A program made the translations under genes and the position numbers. The notes beneath the pieces are model-generated. The model worked only from the letters and a program-made list of their open reading frames with translations, ran no database searches and had not been told where the DNA came from. From positions 2,564,455-2,628,454 of the forward strand of contig OZ254962.1 of assembly GCA_965276005.1 (NCBI GenBank): a DNA stretch of 64,000 bases, in the 5' to 3' direction. This document shows, in pieces, positions 12,018 through 27,130 of this stretch (position 1 is the first letter of the stretch; each line of letters starts with the position of its first letter). This DNA is from Alphaproteobacteria bacterium. Lineage in GTDB: Bacteria; Pseudomonadota; Alphaproteobacteria; JAQWUY01.

Positions 12018-13229
12018 ATGGACTATAAAAGCGATTTTCCTGTGCTAGCGGAGTCGAATATCTGTTTTTTAGACAGCGGTGCCTCCGCCCAAAAACCGCA
12101 GTGTGTGCTGGATACGCAACACTATTTTACCGCTAAGGTGTATGCCAATGTGCATCGTGGCACCTATGATATGTCTCAGCAAATAACCACCGCATACGAA
12201 AATACTCGTGCCACTGTTGCCAGTTTCATTCATGGGCGGGAAGAGGAAATTGTCTTTACCAAATCTGTTACCGAATCGTTAAACTTGCTGGCGTACAGTT
12301 TGGGGCGGATACTGCCCGATGGGGCGGAAATTGTCATATCGGCAATGGAACACCACGCCAATATTGTGCCGTGGTATTTGCTGATGGATCGGCACAATGT
12401 GACGGTAAAAGTATGCCCTATACTGCCCAATGGCACATTGGATATGTCCGCATTGCAAAACTTGGTACATGCAAATACAGCGTTGGTGGCGGTGACCCAT
12501 ACTTCGAATGTGCTTGGGTCTGTTGTCGATGTGGCGGCGGTGGTGAAAATTGCCAAAGCCCATGCGGCGTTGGTACTGGTAGACGGGTCGCAAATGGTGA
12601 TGCACCGCCCCGTCGATGTGCAGGCACTAGGGGTGGATTTTTATGCGTTTACTGGGCATAAAGTGTTTGCCCCCAATGGGGTGGGGGTGCTGTGGGGCAA
12701 GTATGATATATTGGACACTATGCCGCCGTTTTTAGGCGGTGGCGATATGATCGATACGGTATCCTTTGACGGGATTACCTATGCCAAACCGCCGATAAAA
12801 TTCGAAGCCGGCACCCCGCCAATTGTGCCGGTGATTTGCTTGGGCACTGCCATAAAATACATTCAGGGTATTGGACTGGATACCATTTACACCTATGAAC
12901 AGCAATTGAGTAGGTATTTGTATACACAGCTATCGACCATTGCAGACATACGCATTTTGGGGTTTGATACAGCCACTCTCGACGATGGTACTTTTGACAA
13001 AGCCCCGATTGCTTCGTTTGTGATAAATGGCGTGCATGCGTTTGACATTGCCGATATTTTAAACAATTATGGGGTGTGTGTACGGGTGGGGCATCACTGT
13101 GCCCAGCCGTTGATGCAGCACTTTGGCATCACCAGCAGTATTCGAGTATCGATGGCGTTTTACAACGACACAGACGATGTCGATACCTTTATCACCGCCC
13201 TTAAAAAAGCCTTGCAGATGTTACGATGA
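12018..13229 (+). CDS. sufS: Cysteine desulfurase SufS (class II aminotransferase)
   Basis: HHANIVPW, FTGHKVFAPNGVGVLWGK (PLP Lys), RVGHHCAQP active-site Cys loop. Confidence 0.92.
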   Translation: MDYKSDFPVLAESNICFLDSGASAQKPQCVLDTQHYFTAKVYANVHRGTYDMSQQITTAYENTRATVASFIHGREEEIVFTKSVTESLNLLAYSLGRILPDGAEIVISAMEHHANIVPWYLLMDRHNVTVKVCPILPNGTLDMSALQNLVHANTALVAVTHTSNVLGSVVDVAAVVKIAKAHAALVLVDGSQMVMHRPVDVQALGVDFYAFTGHKVFAPNGVGVLWGKYDILDTMPPFLGGGDMIDTVSFDGITYAKPPIKFEAGTPPIVPVICLGTAIKYIQGIGLDTIYTYEQQLSRYLYTQLSTIADIRILGFDTATLDDGTFDKAPIASFVINGVHAFDIADILNNYGVCVRVGHHCAQPLMQHFGITSSIRVSMAFYNDTDDVDTFITALKKALQMLR

Positions 13230-13645
13230 CCCGTTTTCTCGACCCCGAAAAGATTGCCAACGAACCGGATTTTTTTAATGCTAAAGCCCGTGCCGAAGGT
13301 GCCGTAACCCGTGCCGGTACCGCCCTCGACACGGATACTCAAGCGGACGCACAGCAGGTCATCGCCGCCTTGCAAACGGTGGAAGATCCGGAAATTCCTA
13401 TTAACCTGTATGATTTGGGGTTGATTTATGATATTCAATATGCTCCGTATGGGGCGGTGCATATTGTGATGACTTTGACCGCCCCCAATTGCCCAGTAGC
13501 GGGGGAGCTGCCCAAGTGGGTTGCCGATGCGGTTGTCAAAATGCCATCGGTAGGGGTGTGTTCTGTCACCTTAACTTGGACGCCGAAATGGACAAAGGAT
13601 ATGATGTCAGAAGACGCCCAGCTGGCTTTGATTGATATTTTTTAA
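13226..13645 (+). CDS. sufT: SUF-system DUF59/SufT-like Fe-S assembly protein
   Basis: 139 aa, EDPEIPINLYDLGLIYDI...LTAPNCP motif of DUF59; 4-bp overlap with sufS. Confidence 0.8.
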   Translation: MTRFLDPEKIANEPDFFNAKARAEGAVTRAGTALDTDTQADAQQVIAALQTVEDPEIPINLYDLGLIYDIQYAPYGAVHIVMTLTAPNCPVAGELPKWVADAVVKMPSVGVCSVTLTWTPKWTKDMMSEDAQLALIDIF

Positions 13646-13665
13646 TATTGTGGTATACTGTGCAT

Positions 13666-14007
13666 ATGGTGACGAAACTACAAGTTATTCAAATCAGCGA
13701 TGCGGCACAAAATCGCATCGGCGAGATTATGCACATTGCCCCCAAAGGGACAGTGGGGTTGCGGGTGTCCGTGTCGCAAGGGGGCTGTTCGGGGTATAAA
13801 TATGACATCGATTTTGCCGACAGCATTAAACCGTTGGAAGAAGTGGTCGATTGTAAACAAGGCAAGGTCATTATCGCCCCTGATGCCATGTTGTTTTTAA
13901 TCGGATCGACTATGGAATACAACGAAAGCACATTTAGCAGCGGTTTTGATTTTATCAATCCCAATGAAAAAGGTCGCTGTGGATGCGGGGAAAGCTTTTT
14001 GGTATGA
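13666..14007 (+). CDS. sufA: A-type Fe-S carrier (SufA/IscA, HesB family)
   Basis: GCSGYKY...C-terminal NPNEKGRCGCGESF Cys motif. The ATG at 13666 is preferred over the TTG at 13648. Confidence 0.85.
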   Translation: MVTKLQVIQISDAAQNRIGEIMHIAPKGTVGLRVSVSQGGCSGYKYDIDFADSIKPLEEVVDCKQGKVIIAPDAMLFLIGSTMEYNESTFSSGFDFINPNEKGRCGCGESFLV

Positions 14008-14465
14008 GTACGGAAAATCGCAATTTATGTATTGGCTTTATGGCATTGGTGCTGGTCATTGGCGGTATATTTTTTGCGGTTGCGGGGCAAAAATCAGAGG
14101 CGGCTAGGCATACATACCATGCTGTTTTTCGCACCGTCGAGGGGGTAAAAATCGGTGCTCCCGTATATGTATTTGGCATTCAAGTGGGCAAAGTATCGCA
14201 TATGCAGTTGTCCGATGGACAGGTAAAGGTTAGCGTAACCGTTGATGCTACGGTGCCAATCCCCATCGATTCCAGCCTTGAAGTACAAACCGCCGGTTTA
14301 TTTGCGGAAAAGAGTATGACTGTACTGTTGGGCTTCGAAGAAGATATATTACAGGATAAAAACGATTTTATGTATGCGGGCAATGCGGTAGATGTGATGG
14401 GGTTATTAAACCAACAACTGGACATAAATATGGAAAAAAGAAAGGCTGAAAGCAATGGGTCGTAA
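14004..14465 (+). CDS. MlaD/Mce-domain protein (outer-membrane lipid asymmetry), paralog 1
   Basis: N-terminal TM helix then Mce-domain pattern (RHTYHAVFRTVEGVKIGAPVYVFGIQVGKV...). ATGA overlap with the sufA stop. Confidence 0.65.
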   Translation: MSTENRNLCIGFMALVLVIGGIFFAVAGQKSEAARHTYHAVFRTVEGVKIGAPVYVFGIQVGKVSHMQLSDGQVKVSVTVDATVPIPIDSSLEVQTAGLFAEKSMTVLLGFEEDILQDKNDFMYAGNAVDVMGLLNQQLDINMEKRKAESNGS

Positions 14466-14901
14466 TATACTTGAAACGGTTTTGGGCATGCTGGTTGTTG
14501 TCGGTGCCATCGGTTTTGTGGTGTTTGGCATGCGTTATGTGGATGCGGATACGGGCAGCGATACATACACCGCATATGCCTATTTTAACAATGTGGGCGG
14601 ATTAAAATCTGGGGCAGGCGTGCGGGTCAGCGGCGTACTGGTCGGGCAGGTCGAGCATGTGCGGATTAACATGGACGCATTCAAGGCAGAAGTTAAAATG
14701 CAAATTTCTGATAATATTGTCTTGCCTAAGGATACTTTGGTATCGATTGCCGATTCCAGTTTGTTGGGGGGCAAGTATATTACTTTGCGTATGGGGACTT
14801 CTGCGGAATTGGTGCAGAACGGCGGGCGGCTTGACAATATCGCCGATGTGGTGTCGTTGGAACAGATGTTGGGCAAGTTAATATTCTTGGGCACACAATA
14901 A
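14455..14901 (+). CDS. MlaD/Mce-domain protein, paralog 2
   Basis: TM helix + YTAYAYFNNVGGLKSGAGVRVSGVLVGQVEHV Mce motif; 148 aa. Confidence 0.7.
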   Translation: MGRNILETVLGMLVVVGAIGFVVFGMRYVDADTGSDTYTAYAYFNNVGGLKSGAGVRVSGVLVGQVEHVRINMDAFKAEVKMQISDNIVLPKDTLVSIADSSLLGGKYITLRMGTSAELVQNGGRLDNIADVVSLEQMLGKLIFLGTQ

Positions 14902-14908
14902 GCAATAT

Positions 14909-15256
14909 ATGATGGGTCGCATACACATATTTTTGCCGCTATTAGGGGTATTGTTTGTGGCGGGGGCATACGCCACACCCCGACAGTACGCAGAATTGAT
15001 CGTATTAAACAAAGTGTCCGCCCAATCAGAACTCCGCAAAGTGCCTGTGGGCGAAGCGGTGTTGGTGGGTTCGTTTTCGTTACTGGTCAAAGTATGCGAC
15101 AAAGCTCCCCCAGAAGATCCCCCCGAATCAGGGGCGTATCTGGACATAGTACAGAAAGGCGAAAAAATATTCGAAGGCTGGATGTTCGCCTCAGATCCCG
15201 CCCTAAACAGTATGGAACACCCCGTATATGACATTTGGCTACAACGGTGTTTGTAA
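14909..15256 (+). CDS. Secreted DUF2155-like protein (alphaproteobacterial, usually next to mlaD)
   Basis: Signal peptide LPLLGVLFVAGAYA, 115 aa. The family assignment is from memory of the DUF2155 pattern. Confidence 0.5.
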   Translation: MMGRIHIFLPLLGVLFVAGAYATPRQYAELIVLNKVSAQSELRKVPVGEAVLVGSFSLLVKVCDKAPPEDPPESGAYLDIVQKGEKIFEGWMFASDPALNSMEHPVYDIWLQRCL

Positions 15257-15364
15257 ACCCTGCCCAACCTGTGCCATAAACAACCCGTGTAATATCACAT
15301 ATGTTATAAAAGCACTTGAAATATAGTCTTGTCATGTGGTATGTTCGGTGTCGAGGGTAAGACA

Positions 15365-15781
15365 ATGGCTACTGATAACAAAACCATATTAGAAAAAGTG
15401 AAAATGCGTGTTCAGCGTAGCCCTGATTCTGTCTTTTTACGGCGGGAATTTAATGATTTGGGTGGTAGTACGCAAGTCGGACTTGCTTTAAAAAAATTGG
15501 TTGAAAACGAGACTTTAATTCGTGTCGGATATGGTATTTATGTGCGAACTTATGTTTCGAAGTATACTGATAAAAGATTGCCAGAAAAATCTCTGCCCGA
15601 AGTTGCTAAAACAGTTTTGGCAAAATTAGGGTATGAAGTGGGAATGACGAAAGCTGAGTTAGATTATAATAACCGCTTGTCTACTCAGGTACCAACGGGG
15701 CGAGTAATTGCTGTAAAAGGTCGGTTTTCACGAAATTTACAGTATAATGGATATTCTATACACTATGAAAAATGTCCTTAA
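15365..15781 (+). CDS. AbiEi/DUF6088-like antitoxin-type transcriptional regulator
   Basis: GAGGG RBS 5 nt upstream of the ATG at 15365; SVFLRREFNDLGGSTQVGLALKKLVENETLIRVGYGIYVR matches the AbiEi N-terminal wHTH pattern; overlaps the following NTase fragment. Confidence 0.5.
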   Translation: MATDNKTILEKVKMRVQRSPDSVFLRREFNDLGGSTQVGLALKKLVENETLIRVGYGIYVRTYVSKYTDKRLPEKSLPEVAKTVLAKLGYEVGMTKAELDYNNRLSTQVPTGRVIAVKGRFSRNLQYNGYSIHYEKCP

Positions 15782-16007
15782 TGATGACTTAATCCAAGCA
15801 ATTAAATTAGAATTAAGTATCGAACCTGCTTTTATCGAAAAGGATTGGTACATGGTACAAGTATTAGATGCCATATCTAAATTGGATTTTCGTATTCCCG
15901 AATTGTCCCATGTGGATGTAAAATTGGTTTTTGGCGGGAGTACGAACCTGTCTAAGGCACATAAAGTTATCAATAGATTTTCTGAGGATATGGGGCATTT
16001 GGTGTAA
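15765..16007 (+). pseudogene. 5' fragment of an AbiEii/AbiGii-family nucleotidyltransferase toxin (DUF1814), truncated before the catalytic SEDIDL motif
   Basis: IEKDWYMVQVL...VKLVFGGSTNLSKAHKVINRFSEDMGHLV-stop. The family is normally ~290 aa with GGTSLSKay.lIeRFSEDIDL. Here the ORF ends 40 bp before hsdS. Confidence 0.55.
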
Positions 16008-16046
16008 CAAAGCGACACGGTTTACGAAATAAAACGGACAATAAAA

Positions 16047-17159
16047 ATGGCACGAAATCCTAAAATGCGCTTTAAACGCCCCGATGGTACTGACTATCCT
16101 GATTGGCAAGTTATGCGGTTGGGGGATATTACTTCGATAAAAACAGGTAATTCGAATAGAGAAGATTCCACAGAAACAGGACAGTACCACTTTTTCGATC
16201 GTTCTACTGATATTAGAGCAAGCTCTAAATATCTTTTTGATACACAAGCCATTATCGTAGGTGGAGAAGGTAAAGATTTTATCCCAAAATATTTTGTGGG
16301 AAAATTTGATTTACACCAAAGGGCATACGCCATCACAGACTTTAAACAAAATGATGGTAAGTTTATATATTATTACATTTATCATAACAGACGGCACTTT
16401 TTAAAAATGTCTGTGGGTAGTACAATGCCTTCTTTACGAATGAACGCATTTACAACATTTCCTATAAACCTACCCCACCCAGACGAACAAAACCGTATCG
16501 CAGAATTTTTTTCTAATCTGGACGCTGTGATAATCGCTTATACGCAAAAAGTCGAATATTTGAAAAAATACAAAAAATACTTCATGCAAAACCTTTTCCC
16601 CCAAACAAGCGAAACTACTCCAAAAATCCGCTTTAGACGCTCCGATAGTACCGATTATCCCGATTGGCAGGTTGTGCGGTTGGGGGATATTTGTTTAAAA
16701 GGCAGTTCCAATTTAACGATGAAAGATGTACATCGTGATGCCCAATATTATGTTTACGGTGCAAGTGGTATATGTGGCAAAACAAAGGACTTTATTTCCA
16801 ACGAAAAATATATTGCTATAGTCAAAGACGGGGCTGTAGGCAAATTGTATTTGTGTGAGAAAAATACGCATATTTTGGCGACTTTACAGAAAATAACACA
16901 CAAAGAAAATCATAATCTTTTATATATTTACTATGTGATGCAAACAATAAACTTTGATAAATATGTTACAGGAAGTGCAATTCCACATATTTATTATAAG
17001 GATTATAGCAAGGAAAAAATATACCTACCCCACCCTGACGAACAACAAAAGATAGTGGCGTTTTTTTCTAATCTGGACGATGTGATAACCGCCTATACAC
17101 AAAAAGTCGAATACTTGAAACAATATAAAAAATCGCTTATGCAAAATATGTTTATTTGA
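16047..17159 (+). CDS. hsdS: Type I restriction-modification specificity subunit HsdS (two TRDs), orphan in this window
   Basis: Internally duplicated: RFKRPDGTDYPDWQVMRLGDI / RFRRSDSTDYPDWQVVRLGDI TRD starts, and LPHPDEQNRIAEFFSNLDAVIIAYTQKVEYLKKYKKYFMQNLF / LPHPDEQQKIVAFFSNLDDVITAYTQKVEYLKQYKKSLMQNMF conserved regions. AT-rich relative to its neighbours. Confidence 0.8.
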   Translation: MARNPKMRFKRPDGTDYPDWQVMRLGDITSIKTGNSNREDSTETGQYHFFDRSTDIRASSKYLFDTQAIIVGGEGKDFIPKYFVGKFDLHQRAYAITDFKQNDGKFIYYYIYHNRRHFLKMSVGSTMPSLRMNAFTTFPINLPHPDEQNRIAEFFSNLDAVIIAYTQKVEYLKKYKKYFMQNLFPQTSETTPKIRFRRSDSTDYPDWQVVRLGDICLKGSSNLTMKDVHRDAQYYVYGASGICGKTKDFISNEKYIAIVKDGAVGKLYLCEKNTHILATLQKITHKENHNLLYIYYVMQTINFDKYVTGSAIPHIYYKDYSKEKIYLPHPDEQQKIVAFFSNLDDVITAYTQKVEYLKQYKKSLMQNMFI

Positions 17160-17256
17160 GATTAACTATTACAAACAAGACGGTAACAAAAATACCGACC
17201 CATACCAACAAAAAACCTTGCTTAAAAAATATTGGGGCGGGTATAAAAAATATGTT

Positions 17257-17823
17257 TTATGGCACCAGTGCTTTTATGATGTTGGGATTGTGCATGGCTG
17301 CCCCGCATATGGCGACTCCGTGTGCTCCGTGTGCTAAGGCGATGGGGGCGGTGTCTGCGGTTATGCCGCCTAAGGCAAATACGGGCACAGGGGCGTCTGT
17401 ACAGATTTTTGCGAAGCTGTCGATACCCATGCCGGCGTATCCGCTTTTGGATATGCTGTCGAATACCGGACTCAAGGTGATATAATCGCATTCTCGAAGG
17501 TTGACAATGTCTTGTGCGGTGTGGGTGCTGATCCCTATTGGGTAGATGGGGGCTGTTAGGTGCGGGGTGTATGTGTGTATGTTGACATGGCAGCCGATGC
17601 CAAACCGTTCGGCAATATCCGCTTTGCCCCATATGGATACCCTTGCCCCCAATGGTTCCGCATAGGCAACAATATCTTCGGTAAGGCGGATTAAGGCGGT
17701 ATCACACATATGATATTCTCGAATCCCCACCCAAGGGGTGCCGCTGTCTAGGCACTGTTTTAGGGTGCGTGCGATGTTGTCGGTCAGGGTCGAGTCGGAT
17801 ATGACATATACGGATGCTAACAT
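17257..17823 (-). CDS. thiE: Thiamine-phosphate synthase ThiE
   Basis: IGISTHTAQD...DYITLSPVFDSISK...FALGGI motifs. Confidence 0.8.
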   Translation of the reverse strand: MLASVYVISDSTLTDNIARTLKQCLDSGTPWVGIREYHMCDTALIRLTEDIVAYAEPLGARVSIWGKADIAERFGIGCHVNIHTYTPHLTAPIYPIGISTHTAQDIVNLRECDYITLSPVFDSISKSGYAGMGIDSFAKICTDAPVPVFALGGITADTAPIALAHGAHGVAICGAAMHNPNIIKALVP

Positions 17824-18596
17824 TATCCCCCAATTAACCCCATTTGTGGGCTAGACGCTTCGGCGTGGTATTTTTTTGCCATGCGTCCGCTGTTGTATGC
17901 TTGCCGCCCGGCGATAACCGCATGTTTAAACGCTGATGCCATCGTCACCGGGTCTTCGGCTTTCGATATGGCGGTGTTCAGCAGTACCGCACTGCACCCC
18001 AATTCCATTGCCTGTGTGGCGTCCGATGCGGTACCGATGCCCGCATCTAGAATCACCGGCACCTGTACACTGTTACAAATCAGTTCTATAGTGTACGGGT
18101 TGCAAATCCCCAATCCCGTACCAATCGGGGCACCAAGCGGCATCACCGCTTTACAGCCTACGCCCTCCAGTTTTTGGCAAATCACCGGATCGTCCGTACA
18201 GTACGGCAACACGCAAAACCCCTTTTTAACCAATATATCCGCCGTGTCGACCAAGTTCTCTACATCCGGATATAAGGTCTGGCGATTGCCGATGAGCTCT
18301 AATTTAATCCATGTGGTATCCAGACTTTCCCGAGCAAGTTCGGCGGTTAAAATAGCGTCCTGAGCGGTTTCACAGCCGGCGGTGTTGGGCAAAATGATTT
18401 TGTCTTGTAATACGGCAAGTGGGCTGTGTTGGTATGTTTCTAGGGATACCCGCCGAATCGATACGGTCACCATCTCCGCCCCCGATGCGGCAATGGCATC
18501 GATCATTGTTTGCTGATTCGGATACAAAGCGGTACCGACCAACAATCGGCTACTCAGCTGCATATCGCCTAATATAAAGGGGTCTTGGGCTGTCAT
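17823..18596 (-). CDS. thiG: Thiazole synthase ThiG (start trimmed to MTAQDPFILGDMQLSSRLLVGTALY)
   Basis: TIM-barrel ThiG sequence. The ORF-track N-extension overlaps thiS and is unlikely to be real. Confidence 0.88.
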   Translation of the reverse strand: MTAQDPFILGDMQLSSRLLVGTALYPNQQTMIDAIAASGAEMVTVSIRRVSLETYQHSPLAVLQDKIILPNTAGCETAQDAILTAELARESLDTTWIKLELIGNRQTLYPDVENLVDTADILVKKGFCVLPYCTDDPVICQKLEGVGCKAVMPLGAPIGTGLGICNPYTIELICNSVQVPVILDAGIGTASDATQAMELGCSAVLLNTAISKAEDPVTMASAFKHAVIAGRQAYNSGRMAKKYHAEASSPQMGLIGG

Positions 18597-18603
18597 GGGA
18601 AGA

Positions 18604-18816
18604 TTATCCGCCTTGAAAGGGTTTGACCACTTCCACCCTATCACCGTTTTGTAGGCGGCTATCGCCCCAGTCGCTACGGGGAATAAGGATGTTATTTTGG
18701 GCAACCGCAATGCCTGTGGTGGTGGGGGAAATACCGTGTTGCCGCAACAAAGCGGCAATCGTTGTCGCTTCGGTGTAGATGGTATCGCCATTATATGAAA
18801 GAGTCGTGTGTGTCAT
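18604..18816 (-). CDS. thiS: Sulfur carrier protein ThiS (C-terminal GG)
   Basis: 70 aa, ends ...VVKPFQGG. Confidence 0.85.
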   Translation of the reverse strand: MTHTTLSYNGDTIYTEATTIAALLRQHGISPTTTGIAVAQNNILIPRSDWGDSRLQNGDRVEVVKPFQGG

Positions 18817-18836
18817 AGTCCTGTTTTCAAATTGCT

Positions 18837-19976
18837 TTATGGTGTAAATCGGGTTGGTAAAAACGCTGGCATCATTGGATGCACCACCCCATCACAGATA
18901 AGATCTGCCATAATTTTACCGGTGGCTGGTGCCAATAATATACCATTTCTGTGATGACCGCTAGCAATATATACATTATTTAGCGGGGTGTTACCTAATA
19001 TGGGGGCGTCGTCCCGGGCGGTGGGGCGGTGTCCAACCCAGATTTTATCGATTGTCAAATCTTCAATAGCCGGGCATATCCGCCATGCGGATTCGAGCAA
19101 TGCGTATATCCCGCCGGCGGTGTTGTCGTCATTAAAGCCTTGTTCTTCCACCGTTGCCCCAATCAGCAATGTGCCATCTAGTTTGGGGATTAAATAGGTT
19201 TTTGGTGCCCATACCACTGTGTTTATCAGCCGATGTGGCATTTTTAACGACAGCATTTGTCCTTTTAAGGGGCGAATGGGAACAGACATAATGGGGTTGA
19301 GAACAGCCGGTGTGTGTACCCCCGCACAGACCACAATCGAATCGCAACGGTGTGTTGTCCCGTCCGCTAATGCTACCCCGTGTGCACTGTCGTTGTTGTG
19401 TGCTATGGAGGCTACGGGGGTGTTCTCAAAAATATCCCCGCCCAATTTTTGTATGGCGGTGGCAAGGGCGGTGGTCAGGCGGACGCTGTGCACTTGGTAA
19501 TCGGTTTTACACCACATACCGCCCACTGTTTTTAGGTGCGGTTCCATTTTGTCGATGTCCCGTGCCGATAACATTTCTACTTCGACGCCGATTTTTGTTT
19601 GGTATTCGTATAAAAACCGCACGGTGTTTAAATCGTCTTGTGTGCTGGCAACCATCATGGTGCCATCGGTCTGATAGTCGATCGACACTCCAGAGAGGTG
19701 TTCGAGATCCCGGGCATATGTATCCCACAGCGATTGGGCGTACTGGGACAACTGCCAAAGATTGCGTTCGCTGGGTTCGTTTTCGATGCCGCCCGCCAGC
19801 ATCCCCCCAGATTTATCGGTTGCCCCGCTGCCGATGCTAGCGGATTCGAAAACAGTCGTGTGCACACCTCGTTGTTGTAACGCATATGCCACCGCCAGCC
19901 CACAAATACCGCCACCAATAATACATATATGGTGTTTGCTGTGTTGTTTCATGGCACCAGTATACAAAAAAAACAA
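18837..19976 (-). CDS. thiO: Glycine oxidase ThiO (FAD-dependent)
   Basis: ICIIGGGICGLAVAYAL Rossmann motif. TTG at 19976 or ATG at 19952 as start. Confidence 0.82.
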   Translation of the reverse strand: MFFLYTGAMKQHSKHHICIIGGGICGLAVAYALQQRGVHTTVFESASIGSGATDKSGGMLAGGIENEPSERNLWQLSQYAQSLWDTYARDLEHLSGVSIDYQTDGTMMVASTQDDLNTVRFLYEYQTKIGVEVEMLSARDIDKMEPHLKTVGGMWCKTDYQVHSVRLTTALATAIQKLGGDIFENTPVASIAHNNDSAHGVALADGTTHRCDSIVVCAGVHTPAVLNPIMSVPIRPLKGQMLSLKMPHRLINTVVWAPKTYLIPKLDGTLLIGATVEEQGFNDDNTAGGIYALLESAWRICPAIEDLTIDKIWVGHRPTARDDAPILGNTPLNNVYIASGHHRNGILLAPATGKIMADLICDGVVHPMMPAFLPTRFTP

Positions 19977-20283
19977 GGGGAAATCTATATCCTTTATATC
20001 GAATCGAACAGGGGCGGACGGATTATATACACCCTGTGTGGCAAAATAATGCCTCGTAATGTCCGTCGATATTTTGCGTTATTGGGTACTTTTAATGTTT
20101 GATTTTTATCGATTCGATTTTTTGTATGCCTTTTAATGTCTGTGTAATATCTGGATTTATAGGTTTATACATAAGATTTTCGACAGCCAGTACGATTTGT
20201 TTGTCAAGTACAAAAAACAAGATTTATGTATTTTTTTCTATTGTCAAAAATCTCTTGTTCATATATGTTTAGGGTCAGTCATA

Positions 20284-20328
20284 GCACTATATATGGTACA
20301 GAGTTGGAAATGGTACACTATATAGGCA
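20284..20328 (+). promoter_or_regulatory. Two NrdR-box-like sites (gCACTATATATGGTac and gtACACTATATAGGca), 30 bp apart, upstream of nrdA
   Basis: Resemble the NrdR consensus acaCwAtATaTwGtgt, and the tandem ~3-helical-turn spacing is typical of NrdR operators. They lie ~250 bp from the nrdA start, which is unusually far. Confidence 0.35.
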
Positions 20329-20571
20329 TAATATCAGACAGTTAAACGATATCAGTGAGATTCGGTACGGGTTGGTCGAACCTGTGGCGGTGGTGCGAGT
20401 TGTTCGAGCCAGCGGTCGTGGTAGTCAAGTCGGTAGTCTGTGGTTGTCAAGTCAATGGTCTTGGTGGTCAAACTAGTAATGGTAGGTGGTATTGTGTCTG
20501 CGAGGATACGGTATTATTAAGGAGTAGCTATAAGCTTTGTTTTTAGTGAAAATGGAGTTTGCATAATATGT

Positions 20572-23271
20572 ATGGAGTGGGATAAGGGTATGGATTTATC
20601 GACAATTAAGGTCATAAAACGCAACGCAGAACAGGTACAATTTAACAATGACAAGATCGCCAGTGCTGTAAAAAAAGCGTTTATGGCGGTGGTGCACGAA
20701 TCGGATGCAGATATTTCGCAACAGCAACGGGTACAGATTGCCGATGCGGTGACCGATATTACAGATGCGGTCAGCAAGCGGTTGTCGGTAAATGCCCAGC
20801 ATGGCGGGGTGATATTTTTAGAAGACATCCAAGACCAAGTGGAACTTGCCCTGATGCGTTCGGGTGAATACGAGGTTGCCAAAGCCTTTGTATTGTACCG
20901 AGAACAACGGGCAAGACAGCGCCAGCAATCGGAAAAATTGCAGGTCGCTATGGGTACCAAAGTGGCATCGATGCAGGTGGTAAAACGGGACGGCAGCAAA
21001 CAAGCGGTTAGCCTCGATAAAATCACCAATCGGGTACGGGCGTTGGCACATGGGCTCGACACCGACCCCATTGTAGTCGCACAAAAGGCGGTTGCCGGCT
21101 TGTTTGATGGCATCACCACTGAGGAAATCGATACTTTTTTATCGGAAACAGCGGCGGCGTTGACGGTGGAAAATCCAGATTATTCCTATGTCGCCGCTCG
21201 TATTAAAGTCAATGCCTTACACAAACAAACAAATGGCTTTATCGCCGCCACCCACGCTTTATATCGAGACGGATTGTTGCATGATAGCTATTACAATATG
21301 GTTGTCGACAATGCGGATGCTATTGCTGCGATGATCGATTATGAACGGGATTATAATTTTGATTACTTTGCTTTAACCACCTTGATTAAAGCCTATTTGT
21401 TACGGGTTGACGATGTGTATGTGGAACGCCCACAAGATATGTTTATGCGTACCGCTTTAACCTGCGGCTGTGGTGAGGTGTTCGATGCGGATGCGGTGGC
21501 AAACACTTACGATATGATGGCAAACGGCTACTATACCCACGCCACCCCCACTTTGTTTAACAGCGGTTTGAAAATGCAGCAGCTGTCGTCTTGTTTCCTG
21601 ATTTCTATGGAAGACGATTCCATTGAGGGTATTTTTAACACCATTAAAGATTGTGCCTTGATTTCTAAGACAGCGGGGGGGATTGGCTTACATGCCCACA
21701 ATATCCGGGGGGCGGGGTCGCTTATTAAGTCCACCAACGGCAAATCAAATGGGTTGATTCCATTTTTAAAAATCTTTAACGAAACCGCTCGTTCTGTCGA
21801 TCAAGGCGGCGGCAAACGCAAGGGGTCTTTTGCGGTGTATTTGGAACCGTGGCATACGGACATCGAAGCGTTTCTGGAACTACGAAAAAACACCGGTGCC
21901 GAAGAGTTCCGGGCAAGGGATCTGTTTTATGCCCTGTGGATTCCCGACCTGTTTATGCAGCGGGTAGAAGCCGATGCCGATTGGACTTTGCTGTCGGAAA
22001 ACGATTGTCCCGGCTTGTGTGATACATACGGGGCAGAATTTAACACACTGTACGAAAAATACGAACAACAGGGGTGCGGTAAAACCATCAAAGCCCGTGA
22101 CCTGATGGCAAAAATTATCGAAGCCCAAATTGAAACCGGGCAACCGTATATGTTGTATAAAGATTCGATTAACGCAAAGTCGAATCAAAAAAATATTGGC
22201 GTGATTAAATCGTCGAATCTGTGTGCGGAAATTGTTGAATATTCTGACAGCAAAGAAACAGCGGTGTGTAATTTGGCGTCTATAGCCTTGCCTAAATGTA
22301 TCGATAAACACGGGGCGTACGATTATCAAAAACTGTATCAAGTGTCCCGTTTGGCAACCCGTAACTTAAACCGGGTCATCGATGTGAACTATTATCCAAC
22401 CGCAAAAACCGAGCGATCTAATCTCCGTCATCGCCCCATTGGTCTAGGTATACAAGGGCTTGCCGATGTGTTCTTTAAAATGCACATCGCCTATGACAGC
22501 GACACTGCCCGGGATATAAACAAAAAGATTTTTGAAACCATTTACTTTGGGGCAATAACCGAAAGTATGGAAATCGCCAAAGTCGACGGACCGTATGAGA
22601 CCTTTGCCGGATCGCCCATATCGCAGGGACAGTTCCAATTCGATATGTGGGGGATAACCCCATCCGGTATGTGGGATTGGGACTCTTTACGGGCAGATGT
22701 GCAAAAATATGGCGTACGCAATTCCTTAACCACCGCCTGTATGCCGACCGCATCGACGGGGATTATTTTGGGCAATACGGAAACTTTCCAAGTGCAGACT
22801 TCGAATATTTATAAACGCCAAACTTTGTCGGGGGAATTTTTGTTGGTCAATCGCTACTTGGTAAAAGACTTGATGCAGCGGCAGCTGTGGACAAAAGAAA
22901 TGCGGGACACTATCATTGTCGAAGACGGGTCGATTCAAAATATCCCAAACATTCCCGATGAAGTCAAACAGGTGTATAAAACCGTGTGGGAAACTTCACA
23001 GCGGGTGGTTATCGACATGGCGGCGGATCGCAGTCCGTATATCGACCAAACCCAATCGATGAATCTGTGGCTGGCATCGCCGACATTTTCACAGGTGGGA
23101 TCGATGCATATGTATGCGTGGAAAAAGGGCTTAAAAACCGGTATGTATTACTTGCGATCCCGTTCGGCGGTAAATGCGGTACAAATGACCGTATCCAATC
23201 CTGCCGATAGCCAAACCACACATACCATGAGTAATGATGAACTAGAGGATTGCTTAACATGCAGTGCTTGA
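20572..23271 (+). CDS. nrdA: Class Ia ribonucleotide reductase alpha subunit NrdA (ATP-cone + catalytic domain, C-terminal CxxC tail)
   Basis: ATP-cone VIKRNAEQVQFNNDKIASAV, NxCxE-type catalytic region (SSNLCAEI), C-terminal DCLTCSA. An alternative start is at 20590. Confidence 0.95.
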   Translation: MEWDKGMDLSTIKVIKRNAEQVQFNNDKIASAVKKAFMAVVHESDADISQQQRVQIADAVTDITDAVSKRLSVNAQHGGVIFLEDIQDQVELALMRSGEYEVAKAFVLYREQRARQRQQSEKLQVAMGTKVASMQVVKRDGSKQAVSLDKITNRVRALAHGLDTDPIVVAQKAVAGLFDGITTEEIDTFLSETAAALTVENPDYSYVAARIKVNALHKQTNGFIAATHALYRDGLLHDSYYNMVVDNADAIAAMIDYERDYNFDYFALTTLIKAYLLRVDDVYVERPQDMFMRTALTCGCGEVFDADAVANTYDMMANGYYTHATPTLFNSGLKMQQLSSCFLISMEDDSIEGIFNTIKDCALISKTAGGIGLHAHNIRGAGSLIKSTNGKSNGLIPFLKIFNETARSVDQGGGKRKGSFAVYLEPWHTDIEAFLELRKNTGAEEFRARDLFYALWIPDLFMQRVEADADWTLLSENDCPGLCDTYGAEFNTLYEKYEQQGCGKTIKARDLMAKIIEAQIETGQPYMLYKDSINAKSNQKNIGVIKSSNLCAEIVEYSDSKETAVCNLASIALPKCIDKHGAYDYQKLYQVSRLATRNLNRVIDVNYYPTAKTERSNLRHRPIGLGIQGLADVFFKMHIAYDSDTARDINKKIFETIYFGAITESMEIAKVDGPYETFAGSPISQGQFQFDMWGITPSGMWDWDSLRADVQKYGVRNSLTTACMPTASTGIILGNTETFQVQTSNIYKRQTLSGEFLLVNRYLVKDLMQRQLWTKEMRDTIIVEDGSIQNIPNIPDEVKQVYKTVWETSQRVVIDMAADRSPYIDQTQSMNLWLASPTFSQVGSMHMYAWKKGLKTGMYYLRSRSAVNAVQMTVSNPADSQTTHTMSNDELEDCLTCSA

Positions 23272-23495
23272 ATACATATAACACAGTAGAAAGAAGGTCG
23301 AAAAAATGATTCTTAACAGTCATGCCAAACTAGGGGATTGCTTAATATGCAGTGCTTGAATACATATAACACATTAGAAAGAAGGTCGAAAAAATGATTC
23401 TTAACAGTTGTGCCAAACTAGGGGATTGCTTAATATGCAGTGCTTGAATACATATAACATAGTAGAAAAAAGGTCGAAAAAATGATTTCTAAGGG
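23247..23495 (+). repeat. Three tandem 88-bp repeats spanning the nrdA stop and nrdB start. Each unit carries the nrdA 3' end (DCL[TI]CSA-stop), a ~40-nt spacer and the nrdB RBS+ATG
   Basis: Units at 23247, 23335 and 23423 (period 88) differ by ~4-6 substitutions each. Copies 1 and 2 contain 17-codon mini-ORFs MILNSHAKLGDCLICSA. Confidence 0.9.
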
Positions 23496-24477
23496 GTGTA
23501 CTTCTATTTTTCCTTTGCAGTATCCGGAAATTTGGGATCGCTATAAGCTGCATGTGCAATCGTTTTGGACACCGGAAGAGGTGTCGTTTCAAGACGATTT
23601 ACGGGATTTACAAAAATTGGGCGTGGGTGAAAAACGCTTTATCAATCATGTGCTGGCGTTCTTTGCCAATTCGGAGGCAATGATTAACGAAAACTTAGCA
23701 TCTAGGTTTTATAAGGAAATTCTTATTCCAGAGGCACGGGCGTTTATATCGATGCAGATGTTAAACGAAACCATTCATGCCGAGACCTATGCGTTGCAAA
23801 TTGAAACCTATGTGCCGAACCAAGCGGAAAAAGACCAGCTGTTCGACGCTATCGAAAATGTCCCTTGTATCCACAAAAAAGCCCTGTGGGTGGGTAAGTG
23901 GCTGAGTGGCAAACAAAACTTATTAACCCGTCTTATCGGTTTTGGCTTGGTCGAGGGGTTGTTTTTTGCCGGCTCTTTTTGTGCCATTTATTATTTTCGC
24001 AAACGGGGATTGTTGCCGGGACTGGCGTTAAGCAACGACTGGATCGCCCGTGATGAAGGCATGCACTTTAGTTTTTCTGCTCTGATGTTTCGGACTTTGC
24101 GGCAAAAATACCTAAAGGGCACCCTTGACGATACCATGTTATCTGATGTAAACCTGATTTCTGGCGATGTGCCACAACAGGAATTTGAGCACATCGTACG
24201 GGAGGCACTGGAGTGCGAAAAAGAATTCGTGCGGGACGCTCTGCCCGTAGATTTAATCGGTATGAATGCGGACTTAATGTGCCAATACATCGAAGCAGTT
24301 GCCGATCGCATTGCCGATTTATTCGGCTTCGACCGGGTGTTTCACACAGAAAACCCATTCGACTTTATGCGGGCATTAGATGTGCAGAATGTGACCAACT
24401 TTTTTGAAAAGAGAGTATCCGAATACCAACGCCCCACAAACCGAGATTTATCGTTTAACGAAGACGAAGATTTTTAA
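23482..24477 (+). CDS. nrdB: Class Ia ribonucleotide reductase beta subunit NrdB
   Basis: Ferritin-like di-iron ligands (EAIHAETY, ...EGLFFAGSF...), 331 aa. Confidence 0.95.
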   Translation: MISKGCTSIFPLQYPEIWDRYKLHVQSFWTPEEVSFQDDLRDLQKLGVGEKRFINHVLAFFANSEAMINENLASRFYKEILIPEARAFISMQMLNETIHAETYALQIETYVPNQAEKDQLFDAIENVPCIHKKALWVGKWLSGKQNLLTRLIGFGLVEGLFFAGSFCAIYYFRKRGLLPGLALSNDWIARDEGMHFSFSALMFRTLRQKYLKGTLDDTMLSDVNLISGDVPQQEFEHIVREALECEKEFVRDALPVDLIGMNADLMCQYIEAVADRIADLFGFDRVFHTENPFDFMRALDVQNVTNFFEKRVSEYQRPTNRDLSFNEDEDF

Positions 24478-24492
24478 CAGACAGGATATATA

Positions 24493-25416
24493 ATGATGGG
24501 TGTATCAGAGAAAAACAGTTTTGGGCTTCGTAATGGTAAAAAAATTTATCACGGGTATAATGACGAACGCAAGGTAAAAGATAGAAAAGCTAAAGAAAAA
24601 ACAAGGCTTGGATATGAGTCATACGCAAAAGATTTTGAAAGAATCACGCATACTTTACCCGATAGCTATTTGAATTCCATTGTCTGTGGGGACAGTTTAG
24701 AAGTTTTAAAAAACATGCCAAATAATTGTATCGATATTGTGATGACTTCTCCTCCATACAATTTTGGGCTAGAATATAATACCCATTCGGATACGGACAA
24801 ATGGCATGACTATTTTGATATGTTATTTGCTATATTCGACGAATGTATTCGGGTGTTAAAATATAGCGGTAGAATAATAGTCAATGTGCAACCCCTGTTT
24901 TCTGACTATATTCCCACACATCATATAGTCAGCAAGCATTTTTTGGATAAAGGCTTAATTTGGAAAGGGGAAATACTTTGGGAGAAAAACAATTATAACT
25001 GTAAGTACACAGCATGGGGCAGTTGGAAGAGCCCAGCAAGCCCATACTTAAAATATACATGGGAATTCTTAGAAGTGTTTTGTAAGGGACATTTAAAAAA
25101 GAAAGGCGATAGTGGGAATATTGATATAACGGACGAAGAATTTAAAAAATTTGTCGTCGCCAAGTGGTCGATCGCCCCAGGACGGGATATGAAAAAATAC
25201 GGGCACCCCGCTATGTTTCCCGAAAAGTTAGTAGAAAGATGCCTTAAATTATTTAGTTTTAAAGGAGATATTGTGTTAGATCCTTTTAATGGCGTGGGAA
25301 CAACGACTTATGTTGCCAAATCTTTAAAAAGAAGCTATGTCGGGATCGATGTGTCCAACGAATATTGTATTACCGCACAAAATAGAATAGACAGCATGCA
25401 GCAGGAGTTGTTTTAA
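24493..25416 (+). CDS. Beta-class amino-DNA methyltransferase (motif IV SPPY before motif I FNGVGTT), probably N4-cytosine
   Basis: IDIVMTSPPYNFG ... HPAMFPEKLVERCLKLFSFKGDIVLDPFNGVGTT. AT-rich gene, 4-bp overlap with the downstream ORF. Confidence 0.85.
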   Translation: MMGVSEKNSFGLRNGKKIYHGYNDERKVKDRKAKEKTRLGYESYAKDFERITHTLPDSYLNSIVCGDSLEVLKNMPNNCIDIVMTSPPYNFGLEYNTHSDTDKWHDYFDMLFAIFDECIRVLKYSGRIIVNVQPLFSDYIPTHHIVSKHFLDKGLIWKGEILWEKNNYNCKYTAWGSWKSPASPYLKYTWEFLEVFCKGHLKKKGDSGNIDITDEEFKKFVVAKWSIAPGRDMKKYGHPAMFPEKLVERCLKLFSFKGDIVLDPFNGVGTTTYVAKSLKRSYVGIDVSNEYCITAQNRIDSMQQELF

Positions 25417-25417
25417 A

Positions 25418-26113
25418 ATGACCGTAAAAAATATCGATGCGATAATACAATATTATGAAAGTGTTGTGAAAACAGCAGATCAGACCGCCGAACATAATAA
25501 AGATCGGGCGTATGGTGGGTTTGTTCGAGCGACTAAAGGTGTGATGTTGGAAAATATAACAGAAAGTCTTATAAAAATAGCATGGCAAGAATTAGCAGCA
25601 GATGAAGGCAGACTGGTTATAAATAAAACAAAAATAAATATCCCCATTGTACAAGATTATATAGACAATATGCAAGATAATGAGATAAAACAATATATTC
25701 AAAAAAACATATCGGACTATACATTTAAATGTTCTGTCGATAAACATGTATACATCGATAACACATTTGTGTTGGCTGTAGAATGTAAGGCATATGCTGA
25801 AAATGCCATGTTAAAAAGAATATTGGTTGATTTTCATTTGCTTAAAACTATGCACCCAGATTTGCAATGTGTTTTGTTGCAACTGGAAAGTCAATTAGGC
25901 GGGGATTATGCACAGCTTGCTAAAAATCCTTTTGGGTCTAAGCCATCGCATACGCTTATGTCGTATTTTAATTTACAAATTTTAACCTTGCTTAAGGGTG
26001 AGAGAAAGGTAGATAGACCTATATACAAACCTGAGTATTACAAACCTTTATCAAAAACAAGGGTGCAGTATATTAAAAGTGAAATGAAACAATTACTAAC
26101 ACATTATTTATGA
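25418..26113 (+). CDS. Putative Type II restriction endonuclease (PD-(D/E)xK-like: D...ECK)
   Basis: Translationally coupled to the methyltransferase, and its ...VDKHVYIDNTFVLAVECKAY core fits D-x(n)-E-x-K. No other homology is recognisable by eye. Confidence 0.5.
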   Translation: MTVKNIDAIIQYYESVVKTADQTAEHNKDRAYGGFVRATKGVMLENITESLIKIAWQELAADEGRLVINKTKINIPIVQDYIDNMQDNEIKQYIQKNISDYTFKCSVDKHVYIDNTFVLAVECKAYAENAMLKRILVDFHLLKTMHPDLQCVLLQLESQLGGDYAQLAKNPFGSKPSHTLMSYFNLQILTLLKGERKVDRPIYKPEYYKPLSKTRVQYIKSEMKQLLTHYL

Positions 26114-26123
26114 GGAGAAGATC

Positions 26124-26378
26124 ATGCAATTTATTATATATTCAAAAGACAACTGTCCAAATTGTGAAAAAGCAAAAGCCCTAGTAATGGGGGCAGGACA
26201 TACACCACAGATTAAAAAATTAGGCGAAGATATTAGCCGAGAGGCATTTTTCGCCCGCTTTAGCAACGCCAAAACCCTACCACAAATAGAACTAAACGGC
26301 GAACACATCGGCGGTTTTTCCCAGCTAGAACAAACGATGGCAGAAAAAAAATTACACTTCGATAATGACGATTTTTAA
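26124..26378 (+). CDS. Glutaredoxin/NrdH-like small redoxin (CPNC active site)
   Basis: 84 aa, MQFIIYSKDNCPNCEKAKALV... thioredoxin-fold N-terminus, downstream of nrdAB. Confidence 0.7.
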   Translation: MQFIIYSKDNCPNCEKAKALVMGAGHTPQIKKLGEDISREAFFARFSNAKTLPQIELNGEHIGGFSQLEQTMAEKKLHFDNDDF

Positions 26379-26677
26379 TTAAATAAAGGGTGCCATAACA
26401 GATTTTGCAACGAATCTATGACATGTTGCCAATGGTCATCTTGATGTCAGCTCGCAGGAAAACCGTATCCACTAGCAAGACTGATATTGTCTTCACCTTT
26501 TCTGATATACGACAACAATATGTTATGTTTCCATTGGAGAGTAGGTATGGTTTTTAATATATAATTTAGAATTAATAACAAAGGGTATACAAATTTGCTG
26601 TTGTCAATAGTTCTGTACCCCCATGTTTGTGGAATTGTCACCGGTCTGTTTTGTTATAAAAAAATGGCACATAAAAA

Positions 26678-26707
26678 AGGGGGCGTACCATACGCCCCCT
26701 GTTTTTC
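26678..26707. terminator. Bidirectional Rho-independent terminator (GGGGGCGTA-cca-TACGCCCCC flanked by an A-run and a T-run)
   Basis: 9-bp perfect GC-rich stem, 3-nt loop; aaaaaa upstream, tgtttttct downstream. Confidence 0.8.
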
Positions 26708-26726
26708 TGCCCACAGGGCAAAGGTC

Positions 26727-26801
26727 TTATGACACGGCGAACGCCCCTGCGATTAGTACTGCGATTACCGCCAGACCTTTATAAAATACATTATTTTTCA
26801 T
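26727..26801 (-). CDS. Candidate 24-aa hydrophobic membrane peptide (MKNNVFYKGLAVIAVLIAGAFAVS)
   Basis: Perfect SD AAGGAGA 8 nt upstream of the ATG on the minus strand, single TM helix, ends at the bidirectional terminator. The ORF-track 71-aa version has no RBS at its first Met. Confidence 0.45.
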   Translation of the reverse strand: MKNNVFYKGLAVIAVLIAGAFAVS

Positions 26802-27130
26802 TTTAAATCTCCTTGTGATGGAAATTGCTATATGGGGTATTGCCCCTATTTTTAGCGTTGCAAGCCGCCCCACACCACGCTTGTACGACCAACCACCGTA
26901 CAACTGCACGACATGGGGAGCCCGCCCCTCGATTATATACACCTTTTTTTGTCGTTGTCAATGTGTGTTTTTTTGGTAATGGCTTTTTTTGATAAACAGG
27001 TGGTTACTTACCCATCTATTTTCCCATAGTAAGGGGGTGTTTTTCATGAAAACAGCCTTTATGGGGAAAAATGAGGTGTATATTTGCCAATATGTTATGT
27101 GCATTTCACGATAAGATAGGCACATATAAT

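Follow-up and report, generated by a model that had tools for sequence, protein, structure and literature searches.

An alphaproteobacterial defence islet with an intact abiEi gene, an abiEii remnant left by an internal deletion and a solitary hsdS gene

An internal deletion in abiEii

The window analysed here, a 64-kb stretch of Alphaproteobacteria bacterium contig OZ254962.1 (GenBank assembly GCA_965276005.1), contains an AT-rich islet of about 2 kb. Three open reading frames (ORFs), all on one strand, make up this islet: abiEi, the antitoxin gene of an AbiE abortive-infection (Abi) pair; a stub of abiEii, the corresponding toxin gene; and hsdS, the gene for the specificity subunit of a Type I restriction-modification (R-M) system. 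We read the locus as a horizontally acquired defence islet, which ancestrally carried abiEi, abiEii and hsdS and which has lost the toxin through a 714-bp deletion; we give this reading a probability of roughly 0.85. An earlier note, made from the window sequence only, had described the locus as a decayed defence islet, and the finding of an intact abiEii in a sister strain, at the site where the window has the stub, bears this out.

The sister strain is represented by L001, a 36.7-kb metagenome contig (ENA ERZ26858540) that was retrieved by a look-up of the exact AbiEi protein. It is about 98% identical to the window at the nucleotide level and has the same gene order on both flanks. In the same chromosomal slot, L001 encodes an identical AbiEi, an AbiEii of 316 residues and an HsdS of 370 residues (97% amino-acid identity), with hsdS starting 44 bp past the full-length abiEii. 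When the two sequences are aligned with blastn, two blocks are obtained, the offsets of which differ by 714 bp and which overlap at window positions 15988–16006. Direct inspection of the junction reveals a single ATATGG in the window, while L001 has two copies 714 bp apart, at position 2204 (codons D75-M76-D77) and at position 2918 (codons Y313-M314-G315). Exactly 714 bp, or 238 codons, are missing from the window allele, in frame, and set against its sister allele the abiEii gene of the window is a deletion allele. A comparison with intact AbiE loci had been proposed in the earlier note; it is this comparison that defines the lesion as an in-frame loss internal to the gene.

The stub consists of AbiEii residues 1–76 and the last two codons, G315 and H316, followed by leucine, valine and a stop codon; residues 77–314 are gone. 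The 3'-terminal bases of the stub are CATTTGGTGTAA, those of abiEii in L001 CATTGATGTAA, so that the protein ends in -MGHLV* instead of -MGH*. The carboxy-terminus, ...RFSEDMGHLV*, is located inside motif II of the nucleotidyltransferase (NTase), which in the window reads DMG, not DMD. Motif II could be identified in an alignment of the AbiEii family, in which the 316-residue protein of L001 aligns end to end with 25 homologues, because Arg71, Phe72, Ser73, Glu74 and Asp75 (R71 F72 S73 E74 D75) are invariant and D77 and F78 are near-invariant, the latter two being absent from the window sequence alone.

The stub is recognised by the PADLOC AbiEii profile PDLC02297 (E=1.9e-18), at profile positions 4–67 of 307 only, and by the Pfam AbiEii profile with 25.3 bits (cutoff 22.5), at positions 9–37 of 238. 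The profile check that had been advised for the 86-residue ORF thus returned a match to DUF1814, and the claim that the ORF is an amino-terminal DUF1814 fragment ending at the catalytic SEDIDL position was correct. A full-length DUF1814 AbiEii with motifs I to IV is encoded by the L001 allele and not by the window ORF. A phmmer search of PDB with the full-length AbiEii gave no match, and the family profile weakly reaches solved structures of the DUF1814/AbiGII/MenT type. When the 86-residue stub was searched for in a set of 5.8 billion proteins, itself alone was found.

In AbiEii, motifs I and II have been defined as hG[G/S]x15DhD, and mutating either aspartate of motif II, the lysine or arginine of motif III or the aspartate of motif IV abolishes both toxicity and GTP binding (Dy et al. 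2014; PMC3985639). Because the second aspartate of motif II (D77) and the whole of motifs III and IV are missing from the stub, it should, judging from this mutagenesis, be inert and would not act as a nucleotidyltransferase toxin. In annotation, the 80-residue ORF is best labelled as an abiEii pseudogene or remnant.

Compared with L001, the stub contains three amino-acid changes, G18S, G59S and S61N, and zero synonymous changes. All three are derived on the window lineage when L001 and P0006 are taken for comparison, and changes of this kind, with no synonymous ones beside them, are consistent with relaxed constraint. P0006, a protein of 258 residues from another, 2.63-Mb genome, is the closest other AbiEii (73% identical). 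In the family alignment its sequence stops at about residue 245, short of the carboxy-terminus, and a related genome seems to have undergone a decay event of its own.

The stub ends 39 nucleotides before hsdS, and this juxtaposition, the one observation in its favour, had led to the suggestion in the earlier note that a mobile hsdS cassette had entered abiEii and taken the place of its 3' end. Since in L001 the same hsdS stands, at this very site, behind an intact abiEii, hsdS predates the truncation. In addition, the last two abiEii codons and the spacer between abiEii and hsdS are kept in the window, and neither a recombinase nor flanking repeats are present at hsdS. With the deletion internal to abiEii, a cassette replacement is refuted, and the idea is to be corrected in that the solitary hsdS already belonged to the islet when the decay set in.

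It is very improbable, too, that the truncation is a sequencing frameshift or an assembly artefact and that abiEii is really intact. The missing 714 bp are bordered by no more than 6 bp of identity, which might be held in favour of an artefact, and nothing specific points to one. The 39-nucleotide gap, however, leaves no room for 238 codons, and the three lineage-specific non-synonymous changes in the stub are as expected of a real pseudogene; the source assembly is a single contig of 2,965,790 bp. The intact abiEii in another frame that was to be looked for according to the earlier note does not exist: no carboxy-terminal AbiEii similarity is present in any frame of the 64-kb window, and the frameshift explanation is thereby excluded.

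Table 1. Coordinates of the islet and of the features described in the text (window numbering)
Feature	Position	Strand	Basis or remark
AT-rich islet	15257..17256		between the stop codons of the DUF2155 gene (15256) and of thiE (17257, minus strand)
16-nt palindrome TATCACATATGTTATA, just upstream of the candidate promoter	15293-15308		palindrome search
Candidate sigma-70 promoter, TTGAAA, 18-nt spacer, TG-TATGTT	15316..15345	+	consensus scan
abiEi, intact, 138 aa, DUF6088-type	15365..15781	+	PADLOC, Pfam
abiEii remnant, 80 aa (86 aa from 15747)	15765 (or 15747)..16007	+	PADLOC, Pfam, comparison with L001
Deletion junction, single ATATGG	15988..15993		blastn blocks and direct inspection of the junction
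hsdS, complete, 370 aa, solitary	16047..17159	+	Pfam, PADLOC, PDB 1YF2
hsdS internal direct repeats	16058-16130 / 16619-16691; 16464-16591 / 17019-17146	+	repeat search
Probable gene-conversion tract, central conserved region of hsdS	16481..16566	+	20/29 differences to L001
Terminator-like hairpin, downstream of thiE, right islet edge	17181..17197	-	terminator prediction

The antitoxin gene and its candidate promoter

The abiEi gene is intact. Its product matches the PADLOC AbiEi profile PDLC02229 with E=1.9e-40, over profile positions 2–131 of 131, and Pfam DUF6088 with 33.7 bits (cutoff 25). Against the NCBIfam TAA_AbiEi equivalog, it scores 11.9 bits, and because this is below the cutoff of 150, the protein is assigned to the DUF6088 subtype and not to the canonical COG5340 type. 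A phmmer search of PDB with AbiEi found no match. The gene overlaps the stub by 17 nucleotides, so that the earlier description of an AbiEi/DUF6088-like gene overlapping a DUF1814 fragment is confirmed in both parts. Its product is an antitoxin and probably an autorepressor.

Between window and L001, AbiEi is 100% identical in amino-acid sequence, while the genes differ by 7 synonymous and 0 non-synonymous changes, a pattern with P=3e-5 under neutrality. In the course of their divergence, abiEi has therefore been subject to purifying selection; with two strains only, this selection is not assignable to the time after the loss of the toxin.

The candidate sigma-70 promoter directly upstream of abiEi is the sole promoter-like site that the consensus scan revealed in the islet. 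The palindrome next to it, TATCACATATGTTATA, may be the operator for AbiEi; in Streptococcus agalactiae, AbiEi negatively autoregulates by binding to inverted repeats in the promoter (PMC3985639; PMC7725324). On the plus strand, no terminator-like site was predicted from abiEi to the end of hsdS (17159). Given their common strand, the gap of 39 nucleotides and the lack of a terminator, abiEi, the stub and hsdS probably form one transcription unit, which would be under autorepression by AbiEi.

A second AbiEii, P0007, is encoded in the same genome. It is full length, with 303 residues, and 40% identical to the first. A near-identical cluster mate of P0007, P0244, is located on L007, a 163-kb contig from the same metagenome (ENA ERZ26858540 ctg220192), of which the region 1–20993 is a defence island resembling an integrative and conjugative element (ICE). 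The AbiE pair of this island is made up of a DUF6088 protein of 144 residues and an AbiEii of 330 residues. The island also contains SSB, MazEF, a macro-domain protein, insertion sequence (IS) fragments and Fic, as well as a ResIII/RE_endonuc protein with an N6_N4 methyltransferase (Type III-like) and an AAA_15 and DUF4276 pair (PARIS-like).

AbiEi of the window is 59% identical to AbiEi of the second locus. The promoter cores of the two (window 15304–15347, L007 9481–9524) are identical at 34 of 44 positions and are found at the same distance from the ATG; the next-best match to the window core in the 21 kb has 24 of 44. From these similarities, cross-regulation or cross-neutralisation between the two AbiE loci is conceivable. 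One might go further and suppose that abiEi was kept after the loss of the toxin as an anti-addiction or immunity gene, which would cross-regulate or cross-neutralise the ICE-borne AbiE. The second AbiEii in the same genome, the near-identical copy on the ICE-like island, the resemblance of antitoxins and promoter cores and the 7 synonymous to 0 non-synonymous differences would all fit such a role. In Serratia, however, neither of the other AbiE antitoxins suppressed the one testable toxin, AbiE-T2 (PMC7725324), and the signal of purifying selection may wholly predate the deletion, so that we consider this role improbable. A domesticated AbiEi, which would repress a solitary hsdS used in trans, act as a cross-acting repressor or antitoxin against the ICE-borne AbiE, or both, is a shade more doubtful again; if true, it would tie R-M specificity and the control of a mobile element to an Abi or toxin-antitoxin (TA) regulator.

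The solitary hsdS gene

The complete hsdS with two target recognition domains (TRDs) that the earlier note placed 40 bp past the fragment is indeed present; from the stop codon of the stub to the ATG of hsdS there are 39 nucleotides. HsdS matches Pfam Methylase_S in two stretches (E=5.6e-38), the PADLOC profile Specificity_I (E=2.2e-76) and the HsdS structure of PDB entry 1YF2 (E=3e-20). From the amino-terminus, the protein consists of a conserved segment, TRD1, a central conserved region, TRD2 and a carboxy-terminal conserved region. It therefore has the two TRDs, separated and followed by conserved coiled-coil regions, of a Type I specificity subunit, and its internal direct repeats (Table 1) are repeats of the conserved regions.

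No second copy or fragment of hsdS is present on either strand of the 64-kb window. The check for an hsdS shufflon that the earlier note had proposed found only the direct repeats within the gene and no inverted copies, and a phase-variable shufflon was rejected, as no further hsdS-like sequence occurs on either strand.

Differences from the hsdS of L001 are concentrated in the central conserved region, in the tract listed in Table 1, where the window version is closer to its own carboxy-terminal conserved region. Because the cluster of differences resembles this second region of the same gene, intragenic gene conversion is suggested. Outside the tract, 4 non-synonymous and 5 synonymous differences remain (P=0.035 for fewer non-synonymous differences than under neutrality). 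The spacer between abiEii and hsdS (window 16008–16046, L001 2932–2975) contains 5 substitutions in 39 nucleotides, as against about 2% overall, and the changes include the expected ribosome-binding site of hsdS, which is GGACGGT in L001 and GGACAAT in the window.

The complete Type I operon L003 has both window TRDs in its HsdS, in swapped order and with 42–52% identity. TRD1 is found as well in the hsdM-hsdS-hsdR operon of Acetobacter oryzifermentans plasmid NZ_CP011122 (52% identical), and the nearest DNA match of a window TRD is to Acetobacter plasmids. In a search of genome contigs with HsdS, the best matches were 32–43% identical. Three HsdS homologues, P0131, P0137 and P0238, are annotated as fusions of Methylase_S with Polbeta/NTP_transf_2 nucleotidyltransferase domains (PF18765, PF01909); either two genes were called as one, or these are true HsdS-MNT fusions.

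A possible Type I partner for hsdS

Neither HsdM nor HsdR was detected in the 64 kb, be it by a Pfam scan of the ten largest candidate ORFs or by tblastn with bona fide HsdM and HsdR, which gave no match at E<=1e-4; the statement in the earlier note that hsdS has no partner in the window was accurate. The window does not contain a complete Type I system, with hsdM and hsdR beside hsdS, and none flanks the islet in L001. Neither methylation nor restriction is possible with the S subunit alone.

A partial Type I locus is found on L002 (ENA ERZ26858540 ctg202981), a contig from the same sample, with a similar coverage (9.07x versus 9.51x). Its tetranucleotide signature correlates with that of the window core with r=0.966, where values within the window are 0.87–0.95 and those for unrelated loci at most 0.44, and the contig is probably conspecific with the window organism. 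In L002 (10001–12904), downstream of an hsdS of 370 codons (product P0127) come a DUF3800 gene and the beginning of hsdR, of which 200 codons are present before the contig ends. The start of hsdR matches Pfam HSDR_N (E=1.8e-33) and is 37% identical, from residue 1, to an annotated Acetobacter HsdR. TRD1 of P0127 and TRD2 of the window HsdS are 88% identical in nucleotide sequence over 417 bp, while the conserved regions of the two proteins are about 42–52% identical and a linker differs in length by 6 residues. Upstream of the L002 hsdS there is no hsdM, and a protein of 403 residues without a Pfam match is encoded on the opposite strand; the G+C content (GC) of the L002 islet is 0.33–0.35. 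Judging from this contig, some part at least of a Type I system is probably encoded elsewhere in the genome of the species.

As an alternative to the cassette, the earlier note had offered a retained antitoxin together with a specificity subunit that serves a distant Type I system. In such a reading, the hsdS gene of the window could be functional and could provide, in trans, an alternative specificity for Type I HsdM and HsdR encoded elsewhere, which would be compatible with the islet having decayed as proposed above. We regard this as a genuine possibility, although not the likelier outcome. In support, the gene is complete and intact in both strains, with a ratio of non-synonymous to synonymous divergence (pN/pS) of about 0.23; the order hsdS-DUF3800-hsdR (amino-terminal part) in L002 comes with a TRD common to the window hsdS; and a solitary plasmid-borne hsdS of Streptococcus thermophilus is expected to use a chromosomal Type I methylase (PMC11514479). 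On the other hand, hsdM was found neither in the window nor in L001 or L002, no HsdS from the source genome is among the 120 best relatives, and the L002 locus is known from a probably conspecific contig, not from the window genome itself. Known systems with multiple hsdS genes share near-identical conserved regions; those of the window and L002 proteins, which contact HsdM, are only about as similar as stated above (42–52%).

Alternatively, the islet could be what is left of a full Type I operon with an embedded AbiE pair, from which hsdM and hsdR have been lost. Operons of the same HsdS family do embed accessory genes, such as hsdR-x-ORF6N-x-hsdS-rhuM-hsdM in L003 and hsdS-DUF3800-hsdR in L002, and L012, a locus in a Paracoccaceae metagenome-assembled genome (OZ241737.1, 6960–11931), contains hsdR, fragmented hsdS ORFs and then a DUF6088 gene of 216 codons (Pfam E=1e-27). 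This locus is itself decayed, with no hsdM or abiEii detected within it, and it is the only one among 25 HsdS loci from genomes to have a DUF6088 neighbour. The neighbourhoods of the best 80 AbiEii loci from metagenomes, 42 of them at least 6 kb long, were also surveyed: none of the 80 has hsdS or hsdM within 6 kb of abiEii, and an HsdR-like match is present in 2. As no debris of hsdM or hsdR is found in the islet either, an origin from such an operon is unlikely. The more general proposal, by which a Type I operon would be the typical place for an AbiE pair, was rejected for the AbiE subfamily of the window, on the same count of 0/80 loci. The combination of abiE and hsdS, as far as these loci indicate, is not a recurrent architecture and is best seen as an idiosyncratic build-up of defence genes in a single intergenic region.

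Setting of the islet and neighbouring genes

The islet lies between two convergent gene ends. To its left, on the plus strand, are the suf cluster, two MlaD-domain genes and the DUF2155 gene; to its right, on the minus strand, is thiE, the last gene of thiO-thiS-thiG-thiE. Across 15250–17250 the GC is 0.32–0.39, while that of the flanks is about 0.45–0.53, as the earlier note had seen in calling the segment AT-rich relative to its neighbours. No integrase, tRNA gene or flanking repeats were detected at the edges of the islet, the sole repeats being those internal to hsdS. An Rfam scan of window positions 13000–27000 returned no family at E<=0.1; this includes the region upstream of thiO-thiS-thiG-thiE, where no thiamine pyrophosphate (TPP) riboswitch was detected. 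When the identical MlaD neighbour was looked up in order to find strains without the islet, L001 alone was returned.

Of the flanking genes, thiE (window 17257–17823, minus strand) differs from its L001 counterpart by 27 nucleotides, about 19 of them non-synonymous and 8 synonymous (pN/pS about 0.76), and the genes near it show far smaller divergence from L001 at the protein level. Synonymous divergence between window and L001 is about 6% from mlaD to thiE and 1–3% from thiO onward. This step at thiE/thiO suggests a recombination tract that would take in the islet.

A second AT-rich islet directly follows nrdB, at window positions 24493–26113. It encodes an N6_N4 DNA methyltransferase of 307 residues (Pfam E=3e-39) and, after it, an ORF of 231 codons without a Pfam match, which are probably a Type II R-M pair. 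In L001, an N6_N4 methyltransferase gene is found at the same position, and this 36,752-bp contig also has a near-identical 231-codon ORF. From the 3' end of nrdA to the start of nrdB runs an 88-bp tandem repeat (window 23240–23487, L001 10126–10637), with a copy number of 2.8 in the window and 5.8 in L001; the repeat unit is composed of the nrdA stop region and a 5' segment of nrdB that contains the ATG.

Among about 15 billion proteins, five of six housekeeping proteins of the window (NrdB, SufB, SufC, SufS and an aldehyde dehydrogenase) are singletons at 90% identity, and NrdA clusters at this level solely with its counterpart in the one metagenome. The lineage of the window organism is poorly sampled.

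Proposed history of the islet

We propose that a small islet was acquired horizontally and that its ancestral content was a single operon-like unit, abiEi-abiEii-hsdS. As the comparison with L001 shows, codons 77–314 of abiEii were then lost by the 714-bp in-frame deletion, between the two 6-bp ATATGG direct repeats. The 80-residue stub that resulted would have no toxin activity, and with it abortive infection and addiction by AbiE would be lost at this locus. The intact AbiEi probably still represses its upstream promoter, from which the solitary hsdS is probably co-transcribed. The latter would be either a passenger that a former Type I locus has left behind or the gene for a spare S subunit in need of compatible HsdM and HsdR from elsewhere.

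Several points weigh against this history or against parts of it. At the 3' end of the stub, CATTTGGTGTAA and CATTGATGTAA differ by one indel and one substitution, because of which a single slippage or microhomology deletion may be too simple an account of the event. The substitution pattern of hsdS outside the gene-conversion tract hints at some constraint on this gene, and hence at a possible function. Two strains are too few to date the deletion or to gauge any later selection on abiEi and hsdS, and we infer, rather than observe, co-transcription, repression by AbiEi and the loss of toxicity.

The locus is a case of ordinary decay of defence genes and not a new system, every component being of a known family; what is added here is the precise lesion and the sequence in which the events took place. 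The genes themselves pass as members of their families, AbiEi as an AbiEi gene and HsdS as an HsdS gene. Because the toxin is incomplete, the locus is not a functional AbiE system, and because it has no M or R subunit gene, it is not a complete Type I system either; it should not be counted as active for either of them. Its significance is modest, as a natural example, resolved to the base, of the decay of a Type IV TA/Abi module in which the antitoxin has been kept.

Comparison with known systems

The AbiE systems of Lactococcus lactis plasmid pNP40 and of Streptococcus agalactiae, which are Type IV TA systems (PMC3985639), resemble the islet in that they are bicistronic, with overlapping abiEi and abiEii. 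They have the antitoxin gene upstream, with the promoter directly before it, and their toxin is a DUF1814 NTase of the DNA polymerase beta type with motif I (GG) and motif II (R..DhD). In the window, however, the antitoxin is of the short DUF6088 type, with 138 residues, and not an AbiEi of about 200 residues of the COG5340 type. The toxin is an 80-residue stub without D77 and without motifs III and IV, and a solitary hsdS follows in the same orientation.

Decay of AbiE has been described before: truncated AbiEii proteins occur in strains of Streptococcus thermophilus (PMC11514479), and in Ca. Chlorobium antarcticum abiEi is found as an orphan, with no abiEii (PMC8620254). As in the window, the antitoxin persists in these cases while the toxin is truncated or missing. 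They differ from the window in that here the lesion is defined to the base, by the intact allele of a sister strain.

The hsdS gene can be compared with that of the S. thermophilus plasmid pAVA116A (PMC11514479), which is likewise a complete, two-TRD hsdS without adjacent hsdM or hsdR. In contrast to this plasmid gene, the hsdS of the window is chromosomal and located behind the abiE promoter, and no compatible HsdM or HsdR has been identified for it. The HsdS of the window has the same overall architecture and length as those of L003 (hsdR...hsdS-rhuM-hsdM) and of the operon on Acetobacter NZ_CP011122, and it resembles them in TRDs. When compared with L003, the order of its TRDs is swapped, as in a circular permutation, and the window copy stands without M or R neighbours.

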